Shown: positions 32,993 through 61,201 of the stretch, one piece after another
Position numbering within the stretch: the first letter of the stretch is position 1
How the letters are laid out: the number at the start of each line of letters is the position of its first letter
Program-made: the position numbers and the translations under genes
The notes under the pieces: model-generated
What the model was told of the DNA's origin: nothing
Databases searched by the model: none
What the model saw: only the letters and a program-made list of their open reading frames with translations
Source of the DNA: a phage
Direction: 5' to 3' (one strand)
Length of the DNA stretch: 64,000 nt
Assembly: GCA_036253495.1 (NCBI GenBank)
Contig: GCA_036253495.1_4125.1

Positions 32993-33039
32993 GTTTATCA
33001 CAGAGCAACACTATTTTAAATTAAATGAGGAATAACCTA

Positions 33040-34167
33040 ATGTCCGAGAAAGAAATCAATCCAAAAAAAGCAACTACCAAAACTTCTAAGCGTACTACGA
33101 CCAAAACCAAAGGTAATACTTTTGATGCGAGTGATATTTTCGACCAACAGTCTAAGACGTTACCAGTACTGAAAGATACAAAAGGTAACACTATGTCTTT
33201 AACTGTTCAGAACATTAACACCATTGGAACAACTGCTGGTGCAGGTGTCGGACGACTGGCTGATGAAATCATGTCAAAAGTGAACGTCACTGATGACAAT
33301 ACTGAATTTGGTAAATCAATTACCACAATTTTATCACTAACCCGTGCTGTTGATATTGACAGTCTACAAGATGATAAATCAATTGTAGGTTGGGTCAAAA
33401 AACTCTTTGTCAATGCAAAACAGAAAGTTGGTGATCAGTACAAGAATAGTAAAGAGCAGATTGATGAAATCATGAACACACTCCAGGTTGGTATCAATCG
33501 CCAACATAGTGAATGTGAGTGGTTGGATACTGCTTACAATGAGAATAAAGCCTATCTATTTGAATTACGCGATACGCTGGTTGAATTGGAACAAGTTACA
33601 AAAACTCAAGATGCTAAACTGGAAGAAATGCAAGCGAACCCTGATGTGGATTCTTTCGCAATCCAAGAGCAGAAGATGATTTGTGAAGCATTGTCTAAAC
33701 AGGAAGATAAGATTCGCCGTCTTATCATGATGTGTGAGCTTAGTGGCCCTCGTCTGATGAGTATGAAGAAAGTGAATCTAAACACTGTATCTAAATTTGA
33801 AGATCTGAAATCTGTTGTCATCCCTGCATGGAAATCACAACTAGCAGAACAATTGATTTCTGAACGCCAACGCAAAGATAATGAGTTGGGTAATTTGATT
33901 GATAATGAAACTAACCGTTTACTTGAAGTGAACTCCAAAATGGTAGCAACTAATATGTTAGATGCTGCTAAAGCTAATAACCGTGGTATTGTGGATATTA
34001 AAACATTGCGTAACGTACACAAAACAATGATCGATAGCATCGAAGCAGTACTGATTGAAGAGAAGAAAGGTAAGGAAGAACGTGAACGTGCTAAACATGA
34101 AATTGCACAGTTGTCCTACGAACTTGAAGAAACTCTTCGCGAAATTGCTGACAAAGCTAACAAGTAA
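33040..34167 (+). CDS. hypothetical coiled-coil protein
   Basis: Start moved to ATG 33040 (GAGGA SD 8 nt upstream); K/E-rich helical-looking sequence. Confidence 0.55.
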   Translation: MSEKEINPKKATTKTSKRTTTKTKGNTFDASDIFDQQSKTLPVLKDTKGNTMSLTVQNINTIGTTAGAGVGRLADEIMSKVNVTDDNTEFGKSITTILSLTRAVDIDSLQDDKSIVGWVKKLFVNAKQKVGDQYKNSKEQIDEIMNTLQVGINRQHSECEWLDTAYNENKAYLFELRDTLVELEQVTKTQDAKLEEMQANPDVDSFAIQEQKMICEALSKQEDKIRRLIMMCELSGPRLMSMKKVNLNTVSKFEDLKSVVIPAWKSQLAEQLISERQRKDNELGNLIDNETNRLLEVNSKMVATNMLDAAKANNRGIVDIKTLRNVHKTMIDSIEAVLIEEKKGKEERERAKHEIAQLSYELEETLREIADKANK

Positions 34168-37744: not shown

Positions 37745-38098
37745 ATGTTGATTTACTTATGTGTGCTTTTGGTTTCATTGGTTGTAGCAGTATTAGTACT
37801 GAAAACTATTTCAACTATTCGTTCTAAAATTGATAAACATCAAGAAAATTCTGTTATCGATTTAGTTATGGATTTTCCTAAAATCAGTGCAGCCGTTGTT
37901 TTTGTTGTTATGTTATTTGGAACATACTGCGTAAAAGGCTACCTCTATGGTATGTATGATTGTAGCGTTCGTTCATATTCACAAGGTGTTGAAACTGACT
38001 ATAGCTGGTACTATGGTAAGTGTCGTTTTAAAAATGAACATGGTATTTGGGTAGATTTTGATAAACTACGCGGAACACCATCAGGTGATGAAGAATAA
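37745..38098 (+). CDS. hypothetical membrane protein
   Basis: 117 aa; two hydrophobic segments. Confidence 0.5.
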   Translation: MLIYLCVLLVSLVVAVLVLKTISTIRSKIDKHQENSVIDLVMDFPKISAAVVFVVMLFGTYCVKGYLYGMYDCSVRSYSQGVETDYSWYYGKCRFKNEHGIWVDFDKLRGTPSGDEE

Positions 38099-38592
38099 TG
38101 TTTGAATTTCCTGATGAACAACCAAAAAACTACATTGACTGTACTGAAGATGGATACACGCATATCAATATCTACAGTAAAGGGAAAACTAAGCTAGGGA
38201 GAGATTTATCTAATTTTTCTCCCCATAGCTTTACACTAGAACCATATGGATGGTTTCCTTCGGTTGAGTCTTTTTATTTCTGGTTCCTCACTGGACAACA
38301 GCATGAAGAACTTAGAAAGGTATCAGGAGCCGCAGCGAAAGCCGCTGCAAACAAATATATGCATGACCGTATAGAGATGACACCTGAGCGATTAAATGTA
38401 ATCCAGGATGCGATATGTGCTAAAATAATGCAGAATCCTGAACTTGCTGAACGATTGCGTAAAAGTACTCTGAAGTTTGAGCATTATTATTTGTATGGTG
38501 GTAAGATTATTGATGTTAGTGATGACCACCGTTGGTTTGTTCAGACCTTTGAGGATATCAGAACAGTACTGAAGGAGATGAATAATGGATAA
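38098..38592 (+). CDS. possible NADAR (YbiA/DUF1768-like) domain protein
   Basis: 164 aa; INIYSKGKTKLGRDLSNFSPHSF, FPSVESFYFWF, ELRKVSGAAAKAAANKY parallel YbiA blocks (recall, not searched). Confidence 0.4.
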   Translation: MFEFPDEQPKNYIDCTEDGYTHINIYSKGKTKLGRDLSNFSPHSFTLEPYGWFPSVESFYFWFLTGQQHEELRKVSGAAAKAAANKYMHDRIEMTPERLNVIQDAICAKIMQNPELAERLRKSTLKFEHYYLYGGKIIDVSDDHRWFVQTFEDIRTVLKEMNNG

Positions 38593-38860
38593 AGTGAAAA
38601 TTTGTTGTCTTGAATGTGAGATGTTTGTCACTCCGTCTGATACAATGTTGACAATAGAGGAACAAGTCTTTCCATTAAGAGGTGGCTATATAAAATTACC
38701 AACACCATTTTATAGTACATCTTGTTCAATATGTGGTAATGAACTTGTTCTTCATGAGTTGAATTGCGTTAATATTATGGTTGTAAATGCAATTAGTTCG
38801 TATGCAAAAGAATTGGTTAGAAATGACAGTTCATTTGCACATTTATGGGGTTTCAACTGA
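38585..38860 (+). CDS. small Cys-rich protein (putative zinc ribbon)
   Basis: 91 aa; CCLEC ... CSICG cysteine pairs. Confidence 0.45.
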   Translation: MDKVKICCLECEMFVTPSDTMLTIEEQVFPLRGGYIKLPTPFYSTSCSICGNELVLHELNCVNIMVVNAISSYAKELVRNDSSFAHLWGFN

Positions 38861-38861
38861 T

Positions 38862-39134
38862 ATGAATCATTCAAGAACTTGTTGGATATGTTACAATAAG
38901 GATGTAGATCATACTCTTGAACTTGAATATATGGAGATGAACTATGCAACAGACGTAAGATCATTTTCTGCTGGTCGTGTTATAATAAAAACACCACAAT
39001 ATCAGTGTTTGTGTTCAGTGTGTGGTGGGAATGGTGTATATCGCAATGAGGTTCAAATGGTAAATGATGCTATTGAGCTTTATTTTGGACAATATGTTTT
39101 GGATTTATATAAAAATGAACAAACTAACATTTGA
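38862..39134 (+). CDS. small Cys-rich protein (putative zinc ribbon), paralog-like of 38585..38860
   Basis: Start moved to ATG 38862; CWICYNKD ... CLCSVCGG. Confidence 0.45.
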   Translation: MNHSRTCWICYNKDVDHTLELEYMEMNYATDVRSFSAGRVIIKTPQYQCLCSVCGGNGVYRNEVQMVNDAIELYFGQYVLDLYKNEQTNI

Positions 39135-39345
39135 TGCAACCCCAATAAATGAACTTTTAGTGCCAAGTGAAGGAAGCACTGTTAAAATGAACATGTACTG
39201 GATTGTCAAAGATGGAAACGTATTCAGACATAAAATAACAAAAGTATGGCAATGTAACAAAAATGAAAGTATTGTTAAGATGATAGCTGATACTGTAGAT
39301 GGTGCTGAAGTTGTTTTTATGCCGTATGCATATATTAAGGAATAA
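39115..39345 (+). CDS. hypothetical protein
   Basis: Start tentatively ATG 39115; overlaps upstream gene by 20 nt. Confidence 0.35.
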   Translation: MNKLTFDATPINELLVPSEGSTVKMNMYWIVKDGNVFRHKITKVWQCNKNESIVKMIADTVDGAEVVFMPYAYIKE

Positions 39346-39510
39346 ACATGAAAAAAGAGTTGACAATATTCGTCATTCCAACTATAATGTTGATATTGGC
39401 TCTGGTGTTCCCACAATCACATGTGGTTATGCTTAACATCATAGAACTAATTTTATTGGTAATACACTGTATTGTCTGTTACTATTACATTAACAGTAAT
39501 GAGGATCGTG

Positions 39511-39933
39511 ATGAAGTATTATAAAATTCGTATCATTACCAGTTCAGGGGCATCAGCGTGGATTTTTTATGATCTTCCAGATTCATATACCATCGATGAT
39601 GTAAAAGATTTATACTACGAAGATAACAATTGGGTTTTTGATTTAGAATCCAAAAGTGTAGAGATTGATGAGATTACTGAACAAGAATACAAGATTGGCA
39701 CACAAGCTATGAAGTACTTTGAACGTAATCTTAAAATGTTACAGGAAAATGTGTTCCCTGTAAAAGAATGGGCAATTCTCCTTGCTAATTCCAATAAACC
39801 TGTTAGAATTGGTTATCCAAACTTTCATATGGTATATCGTATGAATGAAAATCGTGAATTGAGTTATCAATTTGATTACGATGCTGCTAAGTTTGGTGTT
39901 CTGAAATCGTTTGAAAAGGCATATCCAGTATGA
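39511..39933 (+). CDS. hypothetical protein
   Basis: Start moved to ATG 39511 (GAGGA SD). Confidence 0.5.
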   Translation: MKYYKIRIITSSGASAWIFYDLPDSYTIDDVKDLYYEDNNWVFDLESKSVEIDEITEQEYKIGTQAMKYFERNLKMLQENVFPVKEWAILLANSNKPVRIGYPNFHMVYRMNENRELSYQFDYDAAKFGVLKSFEKAYPV

Positions 39934-40265
39934 GTAAAGATAGCAAAGAGTTTATGTTGCGTTGTACTTGTGGTGATAAAAATGAACATTGTGTTCACAT
40001 TGCACAATTTGACTTGACAGAAGAACACGGTGATGATAAACTTGGTCAATGTACAGTCAGTATGCGTTTGAATCCTTTTCTTAAATGGTACAAGCGTGTA
40101 TGGGTTGCAGTGAAGTATGTTTTTGGTCGCAATGACTTTCATTACGTAGAAGCTGAAATTGATGTTGACATTCTTAAAGAAGTTGTGTTACAATTAGATG
40201 ATACACGAACTGATGAGGAAAAGAAAGACGCACGAGATAAACGTACTGATGTGAAGGTTTTATGA
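39930..40265 (+). CDS. hypothetical Cys-containing protein
   Basis: 111-aa ORF; ATGA overlap. Confidence 0.5.
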   Translation: MSKDSKEFMLRCTCGDKNEHCVHIAQFDLTEEHGDDKLGQCTVSMRLNPFLKWYKRVWVAVKYVFGRNDFHYVEAEIDVDILKEVVLQLDDTRTDEEKKDARDKRTDVKVL

Positions 40266-40456
40266 ACGTCGAGTTGATTGAAAAAAAGTACTGTACAAAT
40301 TGCAATACAGCGTATACAATACAAGGTATGTTAGTTTGTACAACATGTCAGGCAACAGAAACAGCAACATTTTTGGTTGATGACCGATTCAGTGATTTGA
40401 AACAATTCAAAGCTAATCGCAATCTCCGTAACTTTAGTGATATGAATAAGGAATGA
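40262..40456 (+). CDS. small zinc-ribbon-like protein
   Basis: 64 aa; CTNCN...CTTCQ. Confidence 0.45.
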   Translation: MNVELIEKKYCTNCNTAYTIQGMLVCTTCQATETATFLVDDRFSDLKQFKANRNLRNFSDMNKE

Positions 40457-40890
40457 ATATGAATCTTGAACAAGTAATCCGTAACAACCCATTCTTCGCA
40501 GAAAACCCTTCTCGTGTAATTGAAGCGATTAAAGTTGAAGAGCTAATGATTACCGTCAAATATAAAGAAGAAGGTGATGAAATTAGTAGCGTAGTATGTG
40601 CTCTTCGTGCACCTTTCCGTAAAGAAGCAGCTAAGAAACCAGCATATGTACTATCTATCTGCTTGGGTTGTGTAGTTAAACTGGTTGTTGATGAAAATAG
40701 TTTCAACATCAAGGTTGCACCAACTAATGATGATGAGAATGTTGATCTCAACTTTGATGGTGGGTTGCCAGAAGAAGAATTCTTCCAACAGTCACTTGTT
40801 GTAGATTTCCGTTCAGTAACTTATGACCATATCAAACTAATCAATGAAATGGTTGATATCGTCGCTAAGTTCGAAGAAGAAACCGCATAA
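40453..40890 (+). CDS. family-1 paralog (C-terminal PEEEFFQQSLVV motif)
   Basis: 145 aa; shared motif [ST]EEx[YFL]F[QM]xS[LT][VI] about 40 aa from C-terminus. Confidence 0.55.
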   Translation: MNMNLEQVIRNNPFFAENPSRVIEAIKVEELMITVKYKEEGDEISSVVCALRAPFRKEAAKKPAYVLSICLGCVVKLVVDENSFNIKVAPTNDDENVDLNFDGGLPEEEFFQQSLVVDFRSVTYDHIKLINEMVDIVAKFEEETA

Positions 40891-40903
40891 TATAAAAAGA
40901 AAT

Positions 40904-40930
40904 AAGGCTCTCAATCGGGAGCCTTATATT
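40904..40930 (+). terminator. probable terminator
   Basis: AAGGCTC-loop-GAGCCTT hairpin; weak T-tract. Confidence 0.45.
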
Positions 40931-40967
40931 CATTTGTTAAATAAGACAAAGTAAAGGAGTACTTAAT

Positions 40968-41519
40968 ATGATCGAACAAATTCAAAAATTCACGAACCAA
41001 ATTGTAAATTTCCTAGCAGATAAAGAAGGATTCAGTACTGAAGTTACACATCACGGTGTTAACCTTAACGTTACTGCACCAAGCGGTGATGTAACGTCAT
41101 ATGACATGTATGAGTTATTGCTTTATACAATGGCAGTACGCAAAATAGGTTCTGATATAGAGCTAAACATCAATACTGATGACAAAGGGAACAATATTTT
41201 TGCTATTAATACGGATGCTAAACTTGATGTAATTGCAGAAATTCAAAAAATTAACGAGTCATTTATTAATTTCCAACATGATACGATACAATCCGTTTTT
41301 ATTGGTCATCAAACATCTGAAAGTGTTTGCCCTTTTTGTGTAATGACTCTCTATAAGAATGGTAATTGGATGCGTCATGATTTGGCTAAAGCTGAAGTTC
41401 TTTATGCCATTACACATGGTATGAAACTTGAACTAGATGACAGTGCTTTTGTCTTTAAGAAACTAAGAAAATTAACACTAGATGTTCAGACTAAATTAAA
41501 AGAGCTTAATGATAAATAA
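40968..41519 (+). CDS. hypothetical protein
   Basis: 183-aa ORF with AAGGAG SD. Confidence 0.55.
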   Translation: MIEQIQKFTNQIVNFLADKEGFSTEVTHHGVNLNVTAPSGDVTSYDMYELLLYTMAVRKIGSDIELNINTDDKGNNIFAINTDAKLDVIAEIQKINESFINFQHDTIQSVFIGHQTSESVCPFCVMTLYKNGNWMRHDLAKAEVLYAITHGMKLELDDSAFVFKKLRKLTLDVQTKLKELNDK

Positions 41520-41630
41520 TTATGCCAGTAATGGCTAACATATTATTATGTTATTTTTCCTCCCTTCTATAATAAAATTAATTTATTATATTTTCCATTT
41601 CTTATTGTACATTTTATATCTTTTCGTACT

Positions 41631-41653
41631 GCCCCTCCCAGGGGCATTTTTTA
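41631..41653 (+). terminator. intrinsic terminator
   Basis: GCCCC-TCCCA-GGGGC hairpin then ATTTTTT. Confidence 0.6.
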
Positions 41654-41667
41654 TATTAGGATAAAGT

Positions 41668-42063
41668 ATGTTAGGTAGTAGAATAGGCAGCATCGTCACA
41701 ATTAAACTTTCTTATTATCTAAATGATTTTTCAAAGATCGATTTATCAAAATATCAGCAATCATCATTCTATTATGAATCATCTGAGCATAAATTTTCTA
41801 TCAGCAAAGAACCGGTAAAACTAAAGTATCAGGGGGTTGCAGAAAAGAATGAATTCGTGTATGATTATGGTATGGACAAAATTGTATTCACTGAATATAC
41901 TAAGGGTACAAGACCTACATGGAAAGCGGATTATCATAGAAAATCATTCATCAATATACATAAGTATCTTGATGAAGAGCATTACTTTCAACAGTTGCTT
42001 TTGGAGGATTTACCATTCACTATTGATGATCTAAAAACATTATTTAAGTACTATGCGATATAG
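41668..42063 (+). CDS. family-1 paralog (DEEHYFQQLLL motif)
   Basis: 131 aa; divergent copy of the family motif. Confidence 0.5.
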   Translation: MLGSRIGSIVTIKLSYYLNDFSKIDLSKYQQSSFYYESSEHKFSISKEPVKLKYQGVAEKNEFVYDYGMDKIVFTEYTKGTRPTWKADYHRKSFINIHKYLDEEHYFQQLLLEDLPFTIDDLKTLFKYYAI

Positions 42064-42080
42064 TACTAAAGGAGATACAT

Positions 42081-42515
42081 ATGATTATATCATTCAAAAA
42101 AGTACTAAAATATTTCCAAAATAATAAACTTAAAGATATGAAAGTACGTGTCAATTTCTTTGCTAAAAGTGTGTGGTTTTGTACAGAGGATGAAATTAAG
42201 GTTAATGTAAGATTAACTGATTCATATGAAATAATTCGCCTGTACGCAACCATTGATGGTGTGGATACCAAGATATCATACATTTCAACTAGTGGTACGT
42301 TGATCATGAGTACGCGAGAAAATGAAACTGATACATTCAATGAAATTAAGATAGAAAACATCCATGAAATCACATCTGAAGAGATACTATTTCAACGTTC
42401 ACTTGTTGACAATGTACTAGATTTAACATATGATAATATCATACTAATTCACAAACTGCATGATGAGGCAAAAGCGTTTGCTCTAACCAAATTCGGAGAA
42501 TTGGATGATAAGTGA
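42081..42515 (+). CDS. family-1 paralog (TSEEILFQRSLV motif)
   Basis: 144 aa; family motif plus conserved following helix. Confidence 0.55.
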   Translation: MIISFKKVLKYFQNNKLKDMKVRVNFFAKSVWFCTEDEIKVNVRLTDSYEIIRLYATIDGVDTKISYISTSGTLIMSTRENETDTFNEIKIENIHEITSEEILFQRSLVDNVLDLTYDNIILIHKLHDEAKAFALTKFGELDDK

Positions 42516-42930
42516 CCTGTTGAATATTGATATCACTAAACTAAAAATTACCGATTGTGGTATGTGTGTCAATGATAAACGTAAGATTGATTATGCTATA
42601 CTTACTGATGGCAATAAATCTCTTTGGTATGATAAATCTGTAGGAATTCAATTTAGACATAGTTCTAGTATTGAAAAGTATTCAGAGACATTAGATTACA
42701 TAAGTAATGGTAGTATTATCTATGTAAAATATTCAGAATCTGGAAAAATTACAAATACCATTACATTCAATGAAAAGAAGTACACTGAAGAAGAATTCTT
42801 TATGGTTAGTACTTTGTATGATTTTGGGTGTATCAGATACTGTGATTATGTTAAAACATTGGACATTTCCAATAAGATCTATTCGATACTTGAGCAATAT
42901 GAAAAGGAGATAGTAGATGACAGTAAGTAA
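42505..42930 (+). CDS. family-1 paralog (TEEEFFMVSTL variant)
   Basis: 141 aa; Q replaced by M. Confidence 0.5.
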   Translation: MISDLLNIDITKLKITDCGMCVNDKRKIDYAILTDGNKSLWYDKSVGIQFRHSSSIEKYSETLDYISNGSIIYVKYSESGKITNTITFNEKKYTEEEFFMVSTLYDFGCIRYCDYVKTLDISNKIYSILEQYEKEIVDDSK

Positions 42931-43327
42931 ATGTTACATTATCATTCGTGAAGACTTAGATATGCCAGTTGGGAAGCTTGCTGCTCAGGCGGGTCATGCG
43001 GTTGATTCTATCTGGTCCACGATTACCGTTGCTGGTACATCAATTCGTGGTTGTAATGCTGTTGGTGAGAACCCAAGAGATGAAGATGAAAAGATCCTGA
43101 ACGATTTCAGTACTTGGGTACAGGACGGTCGTCGCAAGATTATCTTAAAGGCTAAATCTGAAGAACAGATGCTTAATCTATTCGATAAAGTGAAAGCTGA
43201 AGGATTCACTGCAACTAAGATTCATGATTATGGATTCAACCATTTTGATGGTCTAACATTAACTGGATTCGTTGTGTTCCCGTGCACTGACGAAGTTAAA
43301 GCATTGAAAAGGGTAAGATTATGGTAG
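42917..43327 (+). CDS. peptidyl-tRNA hydrolase, PTH2 family
   Basis: 136 aa; CYIIIREDLDMPVGKLAAQAGHAV and KIILKAKSEEQMLNLFDKVKAEGF...TGFVVFP parallel archaeal/eukaryotic Pth2 (recall). Confidence 0.7.
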   Translation: MTVSKCYIIIREDLDMPVGKLAAQAGHAVDSIWSTITVAGTSIRGCNAVGENPRDEDEKILNDFSTWVQDGRRKIILKAKSEEQMLNLFDKVKAEGFTATKIHDYGFNHFDGLTLTGFVVFPCTDEVKALKRVRLW

Positions 43328-43701
43328 ATGAATTGGATAGAAAAATTGATGCTTTGTATAAATCAATTGAAACCAATGAGGTTACTGTATATTATGGGAG
43401 ACAGAGTGTACAACAATCAAATTCATGTTTACGTTTAACCATAACCTTAGATTCAAGAGATAATCCATATACTTGTGTTTTCAAAGAAAGAAACACCATT
43501 GAATGGATTGGTTGGTATATAGATGACCGTCTTTCATACCTTTATGATTTTGAAAATTATGATAGTTCAGAAGTTTACTTGAATTCAACTGAAGAAGAAT
43601 TATTTCAACTATCATTAATTGAAAAACATGTAATGTCATATGACAATTTACAAAAAATCAAGTCAATAATGAATTATGCTCTATCTAAGGTAAAGCAATG
43701 A
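43321..43701 (+). CDS. family-1 paralog (STEEELFQLSLI)
   Basis: 126 aa; family motif. Confidence 0.55.
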   Translation: MVDELDRKIDALYKSIETNEVTVYYGRQSVQQSNSCLRLTITLDSRDNPYTCVFKERNTIEWIGWYIDDRLSYLYDFENYDSSEVYLNSTEEELFQLSLIEKHVMSYDNLQKIKSIMNYALSKVKQ

Positions 43702-44138
43702 ACATTAAATTAGTTAAAAAATATATCAGTACTTTTAATAAAATTAAATTTATCAACGATGGTTTGACTGATCCTGAAGAACAAATTAAAAATACCACAT
43801 ACGTAGGTCAGAATTGCTTTAAGATTATTATTGAAAATAATGTATTATCATTATCAGTTAATAATCTGGTATATGGTGATCAGATGTATATCGTGCACAA
43901 TGTTAATAACAATAACTTAGAAATTATGCTTCGTGATGATAATGTTATCAAAATATATCAGGTACAAAATGTAAGTGAATGCACTACTGAAGAGGGGTAT
44001 TTCCAGGAATCACTGGTTCAAACATTTAATATTGATTTCAAGGATTTAAAATATCTCATGAGTACGCTAACAAAAATGCGTTCAGCTATCTTTAACATCT
44101 TTTTTATTGATGAACAGCGACAAATGGATGTAAAATGA
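43698..44138 (+). CDS. family-1 paralog (TTEEGYFQESLV)
   Basis: 146 aa; family motif. Confidence 0.55.
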   Translation: MNIKLVKKYISTFNKIKFINDGLTDPEEQIKNTTYVGQNCFKIIIENNVLSLSVNNLVYGDQMYIVHNVNNNNLEIMLRDDNVIKIYQVQNVSECTTEEGYFQESLVQTFNIDFKDLKYLMSTLTKMRSAIFNIFFIDEQRQMDVK

Positions 44139-44557
44139 ACCCAAGAGATTGTTTTGATTTGTTAAAGGGAATGCCTATAGATTCACTAGTACCTGATAAT
44201 AGGTTTGAGCACAATCTTGATTTTCATGGTGAAAATTACAATGTATATATAAGCTACAGTGATGATGAGAGTGAAGAACTAACATTTGTGTTCATTTATA
44301 ATGTTTTTGAAGGTGATAAGTTGTTGGATGTTGAAATTGCATCATATACTGTCACAAATCAATACGTTATCGAAGATGATCTTCGAAACAAATTTGATAT
44401 AACACTGTACAGTACTGAAGAAGAGTTGTTTCAGTTAAGTACTATCAGTGATGTGTGCACAACTGTCGAAGAGTTAGCAGACGTTAAGAAAATCATTGAC
44501 ACTGTGTACAACAAGATATACAATACATTCCATATTGAGAAACAATTAAAAGGGTAA
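44135..44557 (+). CDS. family-1 paralog (STEEELFQLSTI)
   Basis: 140 aa; family motif. Confidence 0.55.
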   Translation: MNPRDCFDLLKGMPIDSLVPDNRFEHNLDFHGENYNVYISYSDDESEELTFVFIYNVFEGDKLLDVEIASYTVTNQYVIEDDLRNKFDITLYSTEEELFQLSTISDVCTTVEELADVKKIIDTVYNKIYNTFHIEKQLKG

Positions 44558-44561
44558 CAAA

Positions 44562-44822
44562 GTGACTACAGTTGTTCGTAAACGCCACATGATGAATATG
44601 GATGAATTCCGTACATTTGACAAATATCGCACTATGTTTCGTATGCTGACACAGGGGCGACCAATTGTCATTGTAACAGAAAATTACATGTCACCTGAAA
44701 TCATGTTTGGTAATTATGAAAAGGTTTTCATGTTGTATGTGAAGCGTGGATTGTTAACTATCAAGACCTTAGCAGAAGCAACTGATGAAGACATGGATGG
44801 TGATAACACATTCACTATGTGA
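44562..44822 (+). CDS. hypothetical protein
   Basis: 86 aa; GTG start 8 nt after AAGGG. Confidence 0.45.
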   Translation: MTTVVRKRHMMNMDEFRTFDKYRTMFRMLTQGRPIVIVTENYMSPEIMFGNYEKVFMLYVKRGLLTIKTLAEATDEDMDGDNTFTM

Positions 44823-44898
44823 GGAACTATGAGCGAAAAACCAAAAGAACCATTAGATCGTGATGATGATTACTACGACGAACGTTATGGTGATAAAG

Positions 44899-45150
44899 AT
44901 GAGTGAACATAATGCAGTACTAAAAAAGATTTTAAATGATTTGGGTAGTGAATTTGAAGTTTCAGACGAAGAATATGAATTTTGGAAAAAGGATTTTGAA
45001 CAACTGTCCGAGAGTGATAAAGTGTTCAATATGATTGGTGTTGTCAGTCAGTACTTACTCGGTGGTGGTCGTGCTAGTGCTTCAATCCTTGCATCGGCAA
45101 TCATCTGTACTGCCCGATGGTGTCAAGAAAAAAGTATTGACGCTTTCTAA
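44899..45150 (+). CDS. hypothetical protein
   Basis: Start moved to ATG 44899. Confidence 0.4.
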   Translation: MSEHNAVLKKILNDLGSEFEVSDEEYEFWKKDFEQLSESDKVFNMIGVVSQYLLGGGRASASILASAIICTARWCQEKSIDAF

Positions 45151-45208
45151 ATTAGGAGATATAATGTTTGTATCAGAGAGAAAGAATGTATAAGGAATTA
45201 TATTTTGC

Positions 45209-45237
45209 TTGACAATGGAGCAATAATATTATACAAT
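45209..45237 (+). promoter_or_regulatory. sigma70-type promoter (TTGACA-17-TACAAT)
   Basis: Consensus -35, 17-nt spacer, in 290-bp intergenic region before the methyltransferase gene. Confidence 0.5.
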
Positions 45238-45387
45238 TAATCAATCTTATACAACGAGGAAACTCCAATTGAAATATGTAATGCTCCTTATTCCAGTGGG
45301 GTCATTCCGTGAAATTCTACCTACTGATGTACTGGATGGTCTTAAAAAGAGAAATCCACATAAGTTTTAAATAGTATTAAAAAGGAC

Positions 45388-45424
45388 AATACTGGGCGAA
45401 TATTCGTCCAGTATTTTATTTTAT
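45388..45424 (+). terminator. intrinsic terminator
   Basis: AATACTGGGCGAATATTCGTCCAGTATT palindrome followed by TTATTTTA. Confidence 0.6.
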
Positions 45425-45436
45425 AAAGGATTATAG

Positions 45437-47335
45437 ATGGAACCGATACGTGTACTATCACTATTCAATGGGATGAGTGTTGGGTATATGGCCTTGCAAA
45501 GTGCAGGAATACCAGTTGAAAAGTACTACTCATCTGAAATTGATAAATTTGCTATAGCTGAATCCCAGGCTAACTTTCCTGATATCATCCAATTGGGTGA
45601 TGTAACTAGATGGAAAGAATGGGATATCGAATGGGACAAGATAGATCTTCTGATGGGTGGTTTTCCTTGCTTCCCAGCAGGAACCATGATCATGACAAAT
45701 GAAGGTCATAAAGATATAAAAGATATAAAAATTGGTGATATGGTTCTTACACACACTGGACAATACCAAAAAGTATTGAGTATTGGTAGCAAGATTGCAC
45801 CAACAAGAATCATCACAGGTCAGGGACATATACCAATTGAATGCACTGATAATCATCCATTTTATGCGAGAAAAATGAGCAAGAAGTGGGATAATGAAAA
45901 ACGACAATATGTTCGTGAATATACAGAACCTACATGGATCGATGCACATGAACTCACAGAAGAACATGCTATATGTAATGTTCGTTGTAATGTGAATTTT
46001 CAACATAACAAGAGTGAAAGCTTTTGGTATTTCATGGGTAGATTTATGGGTGATGGATGGACTTACAAAGTAAAACGACAAAATAGAAAAAATAGTTATC
46101 AATATCGTGTTTTTATTTGCTGTGCTCATGATGAATTTGATGAATTGGTTTCATGTTTTGATGGTATGAATATGAAATATAATTTTGTTAAAGAAAGAAC
46201 ATCTTATAAATTCTATATTTGTTCAAAAGAACTAGTTGAATTTTGTGAACAAATGGGTAAGGGTGCTTCAAATAAACAAGTACACCCCACACTTTTCACT
46301 GAAAGTATCGCTAATCAGAAAGCATTCATTGATGGTTATTTTGACGCAGATGGTCACCATGACAAGAAAGATGATTGTTTAAAATTTACATCAACATCAA
46401 AGAATGTTATTCTTGGTATACAACAACTAATTATGAATGTGTATGGTCGTCATTCTAACATAACATACTTTAAACCGTCTGAAACAAAAGTTATAGAAGA
46501 ACGTGTTGTTAATCAGAAGCCGTATTACGTATTAACATACAAAAAAGAAAAGCACCGAAAAGATGAAGCATTCTATGATGATGGGTCATATTCATGGGTA
46601 AAAGGTGTTAAATCGAACACCACAACCGGAGAATGGAAAACCGTTTACAATATTGAAGTTGCAGTAGATAACACATATACGGCGAACAATATTGTAGTTC
46701 ATAACTGCCAAGCGTGGTCAGTTGCTGGGAAACAAGGCGGTGTGAATGATCCTCGTGGTATGTTATTCCATACAATGGTTGATATTTACCAGCACATAAA
46801 AAGTCTCAATCCTAACTTGAAAGTTCTTTTTGAGAATGTTAAGATGAAGGAAGATTTCAAGGATTATATCAATGGCGTGTTGGAAATGACACCAATTTTG
46901 ATAAACTCCCAGCATTACACGCCTCACTTCAGGCAACGTTACTACTGGTACAGTACTGATAAGTTATTCATACCACCTGCAATATCCAAAGCCCCAAAGC
47001 TTCAAGATATACTTGATGATGGTTGGTACACAGACAGAACCGCTTCGTACTGTATTGATGCCAATTACTTCAAGGGTGGAGATCCGAATCAGTACTTCAA
47101 TAAGTCAAGAAGACAAATCGTTTTCAAAGACCCTGATATCAACAGGAACTTCCTGATTGAGAAGGGTAAACGAAATGTGGACTATCGACATTTGACAGTG
47201 CAAGAGTGTTGCATTTTACAGGGAGTTGATGTAAACTATTTCAAAGTGTCAAGTAACACACAAGCGTACAAAATGCTTGGTAATGGCTGGACAGCACCTG
47301 TTATAGAACATTTACTTCGTGATATATTCTTTTAA
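45437..47335 (+). CDS. DNA (cytosine-5)-methyltransferase precursor interrupted by an intein
   Basis: 632-aa ORF; exteins carry motif I LFNGMSVG, IV GGFP|CQAWSVAG (split), VI LFENV, VIII RQRYYW, X GNGWTAPV; mature enzyme about 286 aa. Confidence 0.8.
   Translation: MEPIRVLSLFNGMSVGYMALQSAGIPVEKYYSSEIDKFAIAESQANFPDIIQLGDVTRWKEWDIEWDKIDLLMGGFPCFPAGTMIMTNEGHKDIKDIKIGDMVLTHTGQYQKVLSIGSKIAPTRIITGQGHIPIECTDNHPFYARKMSKKWDNEKRQYVREYTEPTWIDAHELTEEHAICNVRCNVNFQHNKSESFWYFMGRFMGDGWTYKVKRQNRKNSYQYRVFICCAHDEFDELVSCFDGMNMKYNFVKERTSYKFYICSKELVEFCEQMGKGASNKQVHPTLFTESIANQKAFIDGYFDADGHHDKKDDCLKFTSTSKNVILGIQQLIMNVYGRHSNITYFKPSETKVIEERVVNQKPYYVLTYKKEKHRKDEAFYDDGSYSWVKGVKSNTTTGEWKTVYNIEVAVDNTYTANNIVVHNCQAWSVAGKQGGVNDPRGMLFHTMVDIYQHIKSLNPNLKVLFENVKMKEDFKDYINGVLEMTPILINSQHYTPHFRQRYYWYSTDKLFIPPAISKAPKLQDILDDGWYTDRTASYCIDANYFKGGDPNQYFNKSRRQIVFKDPDINRNFLIEKGKRNVDYRHLTVQECCILQGVDVNYFKVSSNTQAYKMLGNGWTAPVIEHLLRDIFF
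45668..46705 (+). mobile_element. intein with LAGLIDADG homing-endonuclease domain
   Basis: 346 codons in frame; starts Cys (CFPAGT), block B TDNH, LAGLIDADG-like FMGRFMGDGW and FIDGYFDADGH, ends VVHN before extein Cys; removal restores GGFP-CQAWSVAG. Confidence 0.75.
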
Positions 47336-47350
47336 CCATTAGAGGCACAA

Positions 47351-48735
<1,385 letters not shown>

Positions 48736-55588: not shown

Positions 55589-55774
55589 ATGACACTAGAT
55601 GAATGGCATAAAAGAAACGATAAGCTGTATGAAAATGATATTTTCTTCTTCGCATTCGGTGGTCTTGGAAGTATTTTACGTGATAGTGATGATTACTTCA
55701 ATTCGATCATTAGCTATTATGATTGCTATGGGACTATGTACGCCATAGCACGAACAACGGGATGTTACAAATGA
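55589..55774 (+). CDS. hypothetical protein
   Basis: 61-aa ORF. Confidence 0.4.
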   Translation: MTLDEWHKRNDKLYENDIFFFAFGGLGSILRDSDDYFNSIISYYDCYGTMYAIARTTGCYK

Positions 55775-55950
55775 CACATCAAGAATGGTTAGATGAATTA
55801 AAATTCAAACATGATCATTTTGGCTTTGGTGTACGCCAGGGTCATTATGATATTTTAAAAGATAAGAACAAGTTTAAATCATTTATCTTGGATGATGATA
55901 GTAATCGCTGGTTCATCTATGAGCTTGCGGTTAGAGGTAAAAAAAAATGA
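55771..55950 (+). CDS. MTH-EW mini-protein family member (MTHQEWLDEL...)
   Basis: 59 aa; one of five paralogs starting MTH(E/Q/A)(E/D)W. Confidence 0.45.
   Translation: MTHQEWLDELKFKHDHFGFGVRQGHYDILKDKNKFKSFILDDDSNRWFIYELAVRGKKK

Positions 55951-56499: not shown

Positions 56500-56503
<4 letters not shown>
56000..56503 (+). CDS. family-1 paralog (ITDEDVHFQESLV)
   Basis: 167 aa; family motif. Confidence 0.5.
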
Positions 56504-56687
<184 letters not shown>

Positions 56688-58025: not shown

Positions 58026-59714
<1,689 letters not shown>

Positions 59715-59717
59715 TTC

Positions 59718-59873
<156 letters not shown>

Positions 59874-59901
59874 CAAAACGAAATGATAATAGGAAATTAA
59901 A

Positions 59902-60087
59902 ATGCAACTTTTAATTCTTTCAATATTGTATATTATTATAATGGTTCCTATATCAATACGTTTAATTATACTTGAACGATTTTTATCGAAACATGGAAAT
60001 AGATCTATGATATTTGTACCAATCGGGCTTATATTGTTTGGTATATTTGCATTTATAATGGGAATTAACGCTACATTCATTTCATAG
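59902..60087 (+). CDS. small hydrophobic protein
   Basis: 61-aa ORF after the tRNA cluster. Confidence 0.35.
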   Translation: MQLLILSILYIIIMVPISIRLIILERFLSKHGNRSMIFVPIGLILFGIFAFIMGINATFIS

Positions 60088-60096
60088 GAAACAAAT

Positions 60097-60578
<482 letters not shown>

Positions 60579-60585
60579 AAGAACG

Positions 60586-60618
<33 letters not shown>

Positions 60619-60619
60619 C

Positions 60620-60675
<56 letters not shown>

Positions 60676-60676
60676 T

Positions 60677-60807
<131 letters not shown>

Positions 60808-60808
60808 A

Positions 60809-60883
<75 letters not shown>

Positions 60884-60926
60884 GGTTCAAGAAGAAAACT
60901 GGGGTTTTTAACCTAACGAGGTCAAT

Positions 60927-61069
<143 letters not shown>

Positions 61070-61070
61070 A

Positions 61071-61201
<131 letters not shown>

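Follow-up and report, generated by a model that had tools for sequence, protein, structure and literature searches.

Does a jumbo phage of Escherichia coli encode a peptidyl-tRNA hydrolase of the archaeal and eukaryotic type (Pth2), and if so, what would such an enzyme do in a host that uses Pth1? The question is raised by pth2, an open reading frame (ORF) encoding 136 aa at 42917..43327 on the + strand of a 64,000-nucleotide stretch of phage DNA, hereafter referred to as the window. An earlier reading of the sequence, which we call the original prediction, assigned the encoded protein to the Pth2 family, placed its gene inside an array of paralogues, and suggested that it recycles tRNA during infection or counters a host system that stalls translation. 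It further named Pth1, which is unrelated, as the usual enzyme of bacteria, in accordance with the literature (PMC3488237, PMC4929431).

The pth2 Gene and Its Phage Lineage

The pth2 ORF is intact, and its 136-aa translation includes CYIIIREDLDMPVGKLAAQAGHAV, KIILKAKSEEQMLNLFDKVKAEGF, and GFVVFP, confirming the reading frame and the residue strings quoted in the original prediction. A Shine-Dalgarno sequence (AAAGGAG, 42904..42910, + strand), read from the sequence, is located ~7 nt 5′ of the pth2 ATG, within the 3′ end of the upstream gene. The start of pth2 overlaps this upstream gene by 14 nt and its stop overlaps the start of the downstream gene by 7 nt, an arrangement typical of translationally coupled phage genes. 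The Rfam scan detected no RNA family at pth2, its matches in the window being tRNAs elsewhere only. A gene on the opposite strand was also considered and rejected; the overlapping minus-strand ORFs are short and without support.

The GC content of pth2 (40.6%) ranks third among the 108 genes of the window, in comparison with a mean of 34.1 ± 3.1%. Despite this raised value, recent horizontal acquisition was rejected as the main explanation. An old residence of pth2 is favoured because its syntenic position is conserved across genera, and the Ala/Gly-rich conserved motifs can account for the higher GC content.

The region is ~99% identical (98.9–99.0%, BLAST) to the genome of Escherichia phage A4 (ON286972.1; Asteriusvirus; 355,528 bp; host E. 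coli LF82), and the 12.4 kb around pth2 show 160 ungapped mismatches to A4 (~1.3%). Judged by this nucleotide identity, the window is a near-identical isolate of the A4 phage lineage. The corresponding A4 gene, A4_114 (USL83781.1), has the same neighbours and encodes a protein 100% identical over 136 aa; at the DNA level, the two genes are separated by two synonymous and zero non-synonymous differences. A4_114 is already annotated as "peptidyl-tRNA hydrolase" in GenBank ON286972.1, and in this respect the original prediction overrated the novelty of the gene.

Homologues of pth2 were identified by tblastn in 40 phage records, all but two of which are jumbo phages, and many of them are already annotated as peptidyl-tRNA hydrolase. 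The identity to pth2 is 59% for RaK2, K64-1, and Muenster; 40–44% for GAP32, CBB, Serratia BF, Erwinia Eneladusviruses, Yersinia fHe-Yen9, and Salmonella Munch; and 34% for XacN1. In BFVD, the same fold is present in Agrobacterium Atu_ph07, Sinorhizobium phiN3, mycobacteriophage Myrna, Caulobacter CcrBL9, Klosneuvirus, Pithovirus, and Fowlpox virus, among others. The RaK2 paper named ORF188 "Pth2" and remarked on its archaeal/eukaryotic distribution (PMC3622015), the CBB (PMC5259590) and XacN1 (PMC5852040) papers assigned Pth2 to tRNA turnover, and Iyer et al. proposed for jumbo-phage PTH2 a role in resolving the peptidyl linkages that are left on tRNAs after cleavage (PMC7824862). Both tRNA recycling and the countering of translation-stalling host systems are roles already proposed for jumbo-phage PTH2 (PMC7824862, PMC5259590, PMC5852040), and the contrast between an archaeal-type Pth2 and the host Pth1 in jumbo phages is likewise already published. 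With a GenBank annotation on the identical protein and several publications on the concept, the finding is not new. The small additions made here are the conserved position of the gene within a paralogue array, its loss in 121Q-type phages, the clade Asn and helical extension, the sub-equivalog profile scores, and the tRNA-gene linkage in sister genera. Our searches of the literature yielded no phage Pth2 that had been tested biochemically or genetically.

Family Assignment and Predicted Fold

The original prediction proposed an HMM search against the PTH2 family, a missing hit being taken to speak against the assignment. Pfam PF01981 (PTH2) matched pth2 with E = 2.5e-18 and 66.8 bits (gathering cutoff 23), aligning residues 5–126 with profile positions 2–103 of 115. 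No match to the Pth1 family (PF01195) was obtained in the Pfam (E ≤ 10) or NCBIfam (E ≤ 1) scans. The protein also matched PHROG 1866, a function-unknown family, at 8.5e-30. A phmmer search against PDB sequences identified seven solved Pth2 proteins, the best being 2zv3 (M. jannaschii Pth2; E = 3.4e-13), and a profile of the phage clade recovered the same seven proteins in the PDB.

The AlphaFold2 model of the pth2 protein, which was computed as a monomer from the 140-sequence family alignment described below, has a mean pLDDT of 97.7 and a pTM of 0.90. In the Foldseek comparison with the PDB, all 14 significant matches were Pth2 chains (1rlk, 2zv3, 3erj, 1wn2, 1q7s, 1xty, and 1rzw; probability 1.00; target-normalised TM-score ≤ 0.86), and the next match had an E value of ~0.5. 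The sequence profile, the predicted fold, and the conserved residues all bear out the PTH2-family assignment of the 136-aa protein. As judged from sequence and model, pth2 is a real, intact gene of the archaeal/eukaryotic-type Pth2 family in a jumbo E. coli phage.

The NCBIfam Pth2 equivalog models, for which passing the cutoff means that the same function can be assumed, matched pth2 below their cutoffs (TIGR00283 arch_pth2, 63.0 vs 82 bits; NF003314 PRK04322, 64.9 vs 126 bits). The protein is therefore a divergent member of the superfamily and no certified functional equivalent. These scores would fit an alternative in which the Pth2 fold has diverged toward another substrate, for example, a different acyl ester carried by RNA or a small molecule, or toward a non-catalytic role, for example, ribosome or tRNA binding via the extended helical hairpin. 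If so, the annotation "peptidyl-tRNA hydrolase" would be wrong in detail. The identity of pth2 to solved Pth2s, only 23–28%, points in the same direction, as do the moonlighting roles of human PTRH2, which may or may not depend on catalysis (PMC7661711).

Conserved Residues and the Helical Extension

Searched exhaustively with HMMER, 1.84 billion representative proteins yielded 566 matches at E ≤ 0.001. The family alignment comprised the pth2 protein and 139 HMMER matches (140 sequences), and closer relatives were aligned too. H27 and D104 are invariant among the 140 sequences and present in pth2, and K20, Q24, H27, and D104 are all either invariant or at least 99% conserved. R11, D13, K20, Q24, W67, K74, G106, T114, T116, and P122 are at least 90% conserved, and pth2 has all of them; with H27, D104, and N108 they constitute the key residues of the protein. 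The conserved pth2 residues are kept in phage relatives down to ~40% identity. In these sequence comparisons, purifying selection on pth2 is evident, as the residues are kept across relatives and no non-synonymous change separates the gene from that of A4.

The catalytic residues of pth2 were mapped by conservation analysis combined with earlier work on Pth2. K20, D104, and N108 occupy the positions of K18, D86, and T90 in S. solfataricus Pth2, residues that were reportedly implicated by mutagenesis in the work of Fromant et al. in 2005. On this basis, we designate K20 and D104 of pth2 as putative catalytic residues.

Position 108 is Thr in 119 and Asn in 17 of the 140 sequences, and Asn occupies it in pth2 and in 12 of the 13 close phage relatives. 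The replacement of the motif Thr by Asn would favour an altered role. However, Asn and Thr interchange within the phage clade, since one close relative, P0003 (66% identity to pth2), carries Thr at this position where 12 of the 13 relatives carry Asn, and N108 is also seen in short, archaeal-length family members. Furthermore, all other residues conserved throughout the family are retained, among them the Lys and the invariant His and Asp, which argues against an altered role.

The other distinguishing feature of the phage clade is an expansion at pth2 residues ~37–60 (43025..43096, + strand), which is apparent as a gap in the 2zv3 and 1wn2 alignments, in the insert length, and in the model. 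The segment from helix 1 to the conserved Trp spans 28–34 residues in the phage clade vs 9–13 in archaeal-type proteins. In the model, the expansion corresponds to a longer helix 1 (residues 18–48) and the start of helix 2 (residues 55–69), and archaeal Pth2s have ~20 residues fewer. In the crystal structures of archaeal and eukaryotic Pth2, the homodimer is reported to form via helix 1. Because the modelled extension sits in helices 1 and 2, this clade-specific feature could alter the dimer interface. An extension of ~20 residues in helix 1 and helix 2 would also be in keeping with an altered role, but among all family members this insert varies in length between 9 and 43 residues; the expansion is therefore not unique to phage proteins and no special phage feature. 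With the low profile scores on one side and the retained residues on the other, we regard a changed substrate or a non-catalytic role as distinctly unlikely.

Gene Order in the Paralogue Array

The claim that pth2 is embedded in an array of paralogues was examined with an HMM seeded from the motif-bearing neighbours of pth2 in the window. The HMM identified a family of 15 paralogues (~117–158 aa) between 40453 and 63673, all on the + strand, which share the C-terminal motif TEEExFQxS[LT]. pth2 is located between the third and fourth members of a six-gene array run (41668–44557), with three paralogues directly 5′ and three directly 3′, and the claimed embedding is thereby confirmed. The three upstream genes (41668..42063, 42081..42515, and 42505..42930, + strand) matched the family HMM at E values of 1e-25 to 1e-29 and belong to PHROG unknown-function families. 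The three downstream genes (43321..43701, 43698..44138, and 44135..44557, + strand) were likewise assigned by the family HMM and carry the TEEExFQxS[LT] motif.

The upstream array genes probably share a transcription unit with pth2. Terminator-like hairpins at 41630–41646 and 45388–45415 flank the region, and it is plausible that they bracket this unit. The total count of sigma-70-like sites showed no excess over shuffled sequence, and we therefore claim no promoter for pth2. The eight strongest sigma-70-like matches in 38000..48000 of the window (11 or 12 of 12 consensus positions) are all on the + (coding) strand, and such matches may reflect early promoters for the host RNA polymerase across the small-ORF region. 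In another part of the window, a TelA-like (toxic anion resistance) protein is encoded at 33025..34167 (+ strand; Pfam PF05816, E = 5e-38), downstream of a replication/nucleotide block that contains the RNR large subunit, an SF1 helicase, topoisomerase II subunits, and a clamp-loader-like ATPase.

The order array, pth2, array, and C5 DNA methyltransferase is common to A4, K64-1/RaK2, GAP32, and two metagenomic relatives.

Distribution and Absence from 121Q

In Asteriusvirus 121Q (NC_025447.1 56669–66878), the array and the methyltransferase are syntenic with those of the window, and gp85 and gp86 abut without pth2. No 121Q or PBECO4-type genomes were found among the tblastn matches to pth2. 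As pth2 is cleanly missing from the same position in 121Q, it is an accessory gene. The simplest reading of these comparisons is that pth2 was ancestral to the phage group and was then lost in the 121Q lineage. Since 121Q infects E. coli without pth2, any benefit of the gene would be conditional. A4 (with pth2) and 121Q (without it), which are otherwise syntenic E. coli phages, form a handy natural pair for experiment.

The clean absence of pth2 from this position in 121Q-type Asteriusviruses might also be expected if the gene were a decaying, non-functional remnant on its way out of the phage group. We consider this highly improbable: the ORF is intact, has a strong ribosome-binding site, and is translationally coupled to its neighbours; the conserved residues are all retained at 40–100% identity; the differences from A4 are only synonymous; and the fold prediction is very confident.

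Related loci were searched for with patterns built from a 13-sequence clade alignment. The scan with these clade-specific patterns identified 13 IMG/VR loci, most on contigs of 340–380 kb. Among 185,579 species-representative prokaryotic genomes, the clade patterns, which are blind to distant bacterial Pth2-like proteins, detected no pth2 relatives. On the sequence level, this result fits a clade that is restricted to phages.

The C5 DNA cytosine methyltransferase (632 aa; 45437..47335, + strand) carries a 346-aa intein at 45668..46705 with Hint and LAGLIDADG homing-endonuclease domains. The intein is inserted exactly within catalytic motif IV (GGFP|CFPAGT...VVHN|CQAWS), so that the catalytic Cys of the PCQ motif doubles as the +1 Cys of the C-extein. 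The predicted spliced methyltransferase has 286 aa, the length of the intein-less orthologue 121Q gp91; intein-less orthologues in two metagenomic relatives have 269 and 286 aa. 121Q is without both pth2 and the methyltransferase intein, and at least two discrete gene-content events relative to the A4-like lineage have therefore occurred within 5 kb.

tRNA Genes, Codon Usage, and Proposed Function

In GAP32/CBB-like loci, pth2 is linked to tRNA genes: tRNA-Leu(UAG) lies ~60–500 bp downstream in 7 of the 16 examined loci, and tRNA-Thr(UGU) ~3–5 kb upstream in 8 of the 16. PTH2-like genes have also been described in cluster C mycobacteriophages, where ~96% of the tRNA arrays contain them (PMC5966550). 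The nearest tRNA cluster in the window lies 16 kb downstream of pth2 (58026..61191, + strand) and comprises Gly(UCC), Ser(GCU), Met/Ile-type(CAU), Asn(GUU), and Thr(UGU) tRNA genes interleaved with array-family ORFs. A weak sixth tRNA-like match at 58026..58104 was obtained with Rfam only (32.6 bits; cutoff 29). Just upstream of the tRNA cluster, we observed a second family of tiny paralogous ORFs (55–64 aa, ≤ 60% identical) at 55762..55950, 56500..56676, 58130..58297, 58264..58458, and 58425..58619 (+ strand).

The 108 ORFs of the window are AT-rich (34.5% GC) and mostly short. Per 1000 codons, the genes of the window contain 15.3 AUA and 7.6 AGA, and at codons 2–8 these values rise to 23.8 AUA and 14.6 AGA. 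The corresponding E. coli values are approximately 4.3 for AUA and 2.1 for AGA. Where hungry codons lie close to the start, peptidyl-tRNA drops off as it does with minigenes, and tRNA is sequestered (PMC2490762); host Pth is a known bottleneck for phage lambda via bar minigenes (PMC8012679).

Alongside the observed family membership, fold, retained residues, conserved position, sister-lineage loss, and tRNA linkage in relatives, we infer for pth2 an enzyme activity, a substrate, and a physiological benefit. In the reading that we favour and consider probable, pth2 encodes a catalytically competent Pth2-type esterase that adds peptidyl-tRNA hydrolase capacity, by which tRNA is recycled during infection. 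The pth2 product would hydrolyse the ester bond of peptidyl-tRNA, and also that of N-blocked aminoacyl-tRNA, that has dropped off host ribosomes. Free tRNA would thereby be released, and the limited activity of the host Pth1 would be supplemented. The need for such an activity would probably arise from the AT-rich genome, the many short ORFs, and the codons that are rare in E. coli. The gene would represent an accessory, non-essential piece of a translation-support kit, beside the phage tRNA genes. Archaeal Pth2 is said to complement an E. coli pth(ts) mutant (reported by Rosas-Sandoval et al. in PNAS in 2002), and a Pth2 can therefore act on bacterial peptidyl-tRNA.

The same ester hydrolysis could instead undo host immunity that targets translation, either by stripping the N-acetyl-aminoacyl groups installed by GNAT toxins (TacT, AtaT, and ItaT) or by clearing ribosome-bound peptidyl-tRNA fragments after the action of anticodon nucleases. 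Such a counter-defence enzyme overlaps the reading favoured here, from which it differs solely in the selective pressure. In E. coli and Salmonella, TacT-acetylated aminoacyl-tRNA is detoxified when Pth is overproduced (PMC4942678), as is also the case in M. tuberculosis (PMC9241777), and Iyer et al. tie PTH2 to anticodon-nuclease damage (PMC7824862). Additionally, the accessory pattern (present in A4, RaK2, and GAP32; absent from 121Q) is typical of anti-defence genes, and the pth2 region is rich in small, fast-evolving ORFs of unknown function. Conversely, the position of pth2 is stably syntenic and outside variable hotspots, and the genes that accompany it in phage genomes are tRNA genes rather than known anti-defence genes. 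PADLOC gave no match for pth2 or three array members, a null result of little weight here because PADLOC models defence systems, not anti-defence proteins. Counter-defence as the driving pressure is a possible but unlikely reading.

A more specific proposal would join the clade features with this pressure. The phage Pth2 clade, with Asn in place of Thr and a longer helix 1/helix 2 hairpin, may have been re-specialised for counter-defence, stripping toxin-installed acyl groups from tRNA or acting on ribosome-bound stalled peptidyl-tRNA, and it might work together with the surrounding array paralogues. We put this forward as a speculative and improbable scenario; if true, the protein would be the first of a new class of anti-defence factors, one that operates on tRNA acylation.

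If the recycling enzyme favoured here is active, a bacterial virus would bring an archaeal/eukaryotic-type tRNA-recycling enzyme into a host with a single essential Pth1. This would bear on how jumbo phages translate AT-rich genomes with rare codons, on the origin of Pth2, and possibly on the evasion of tRNA-targeting toxins. These implications of Pth2 are already in the literature for RaK2-, GAP32-, CBB-like, and other jumbo phages.

Comparison with Known Peptidyl-tRNA Hydrolases

The closest counterparts of pth2 beyond A4 are the jumbo-phage PTH2 proteins discussed previously (PMC3622015, PMC5259590, PMC5852040, PMC7824862). RaK2 ORF188/K64-1 gp231, GAP32_382, CBB_392, XacN1 ORF295, and the Serratia BF and Erwinia Eneladusvirus proteins belong to the same Pfam family, have the expanded helix 1/helix 2, and carry Asn where the motif has Thr. 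In RaK2, K64-1, and GAP32, the gene likewise resides inside a paralogue array upstream of a DNA methyltransferase. The GAP32-like copies differ in having an insert of 28 vs 34 residues and an extra loop before strand 3, and they adjoin tRNA-Leu(UAG). The XacN1 copy is located among head genes, without the array.

Archaeal and eukaryotic Pth2 proteins (2zv3; P. horikoshii 1wn2; S. solfataricus 1xty; A. fulgidus 3erj; human PTRH2/Bit1 1q7s) share the α/β fold with the phage protein, with target-normalised TM-scores of 0.72–0.86. The motifs R-x-D-L-x-M-x-x-G-K-x-A-A-Q-x-x-H and D-x-G, including the Lys, His, and Asp, are common to both. In comparison with these proteins, phage pth2 shows 23–28% identity, ~20 extra residues, and Asn in place of Thr in D-x-G-x-T. 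Unlike them, it comes from a bacteriophage, and the host of this phage employs Pth1.

Bacterial Pth1 (E. coli Pth), with the catalytic residues His20/Asp93/Asn10, presumably shares the reaction and the substrate with pth2, namely, hydrolysis of the peptidyl-tRNA ester for tRNA recycling. The fold and the catalytic residues of Pth1 are unrelated to those of Pth2 (PMC3488237, PMC11202043).
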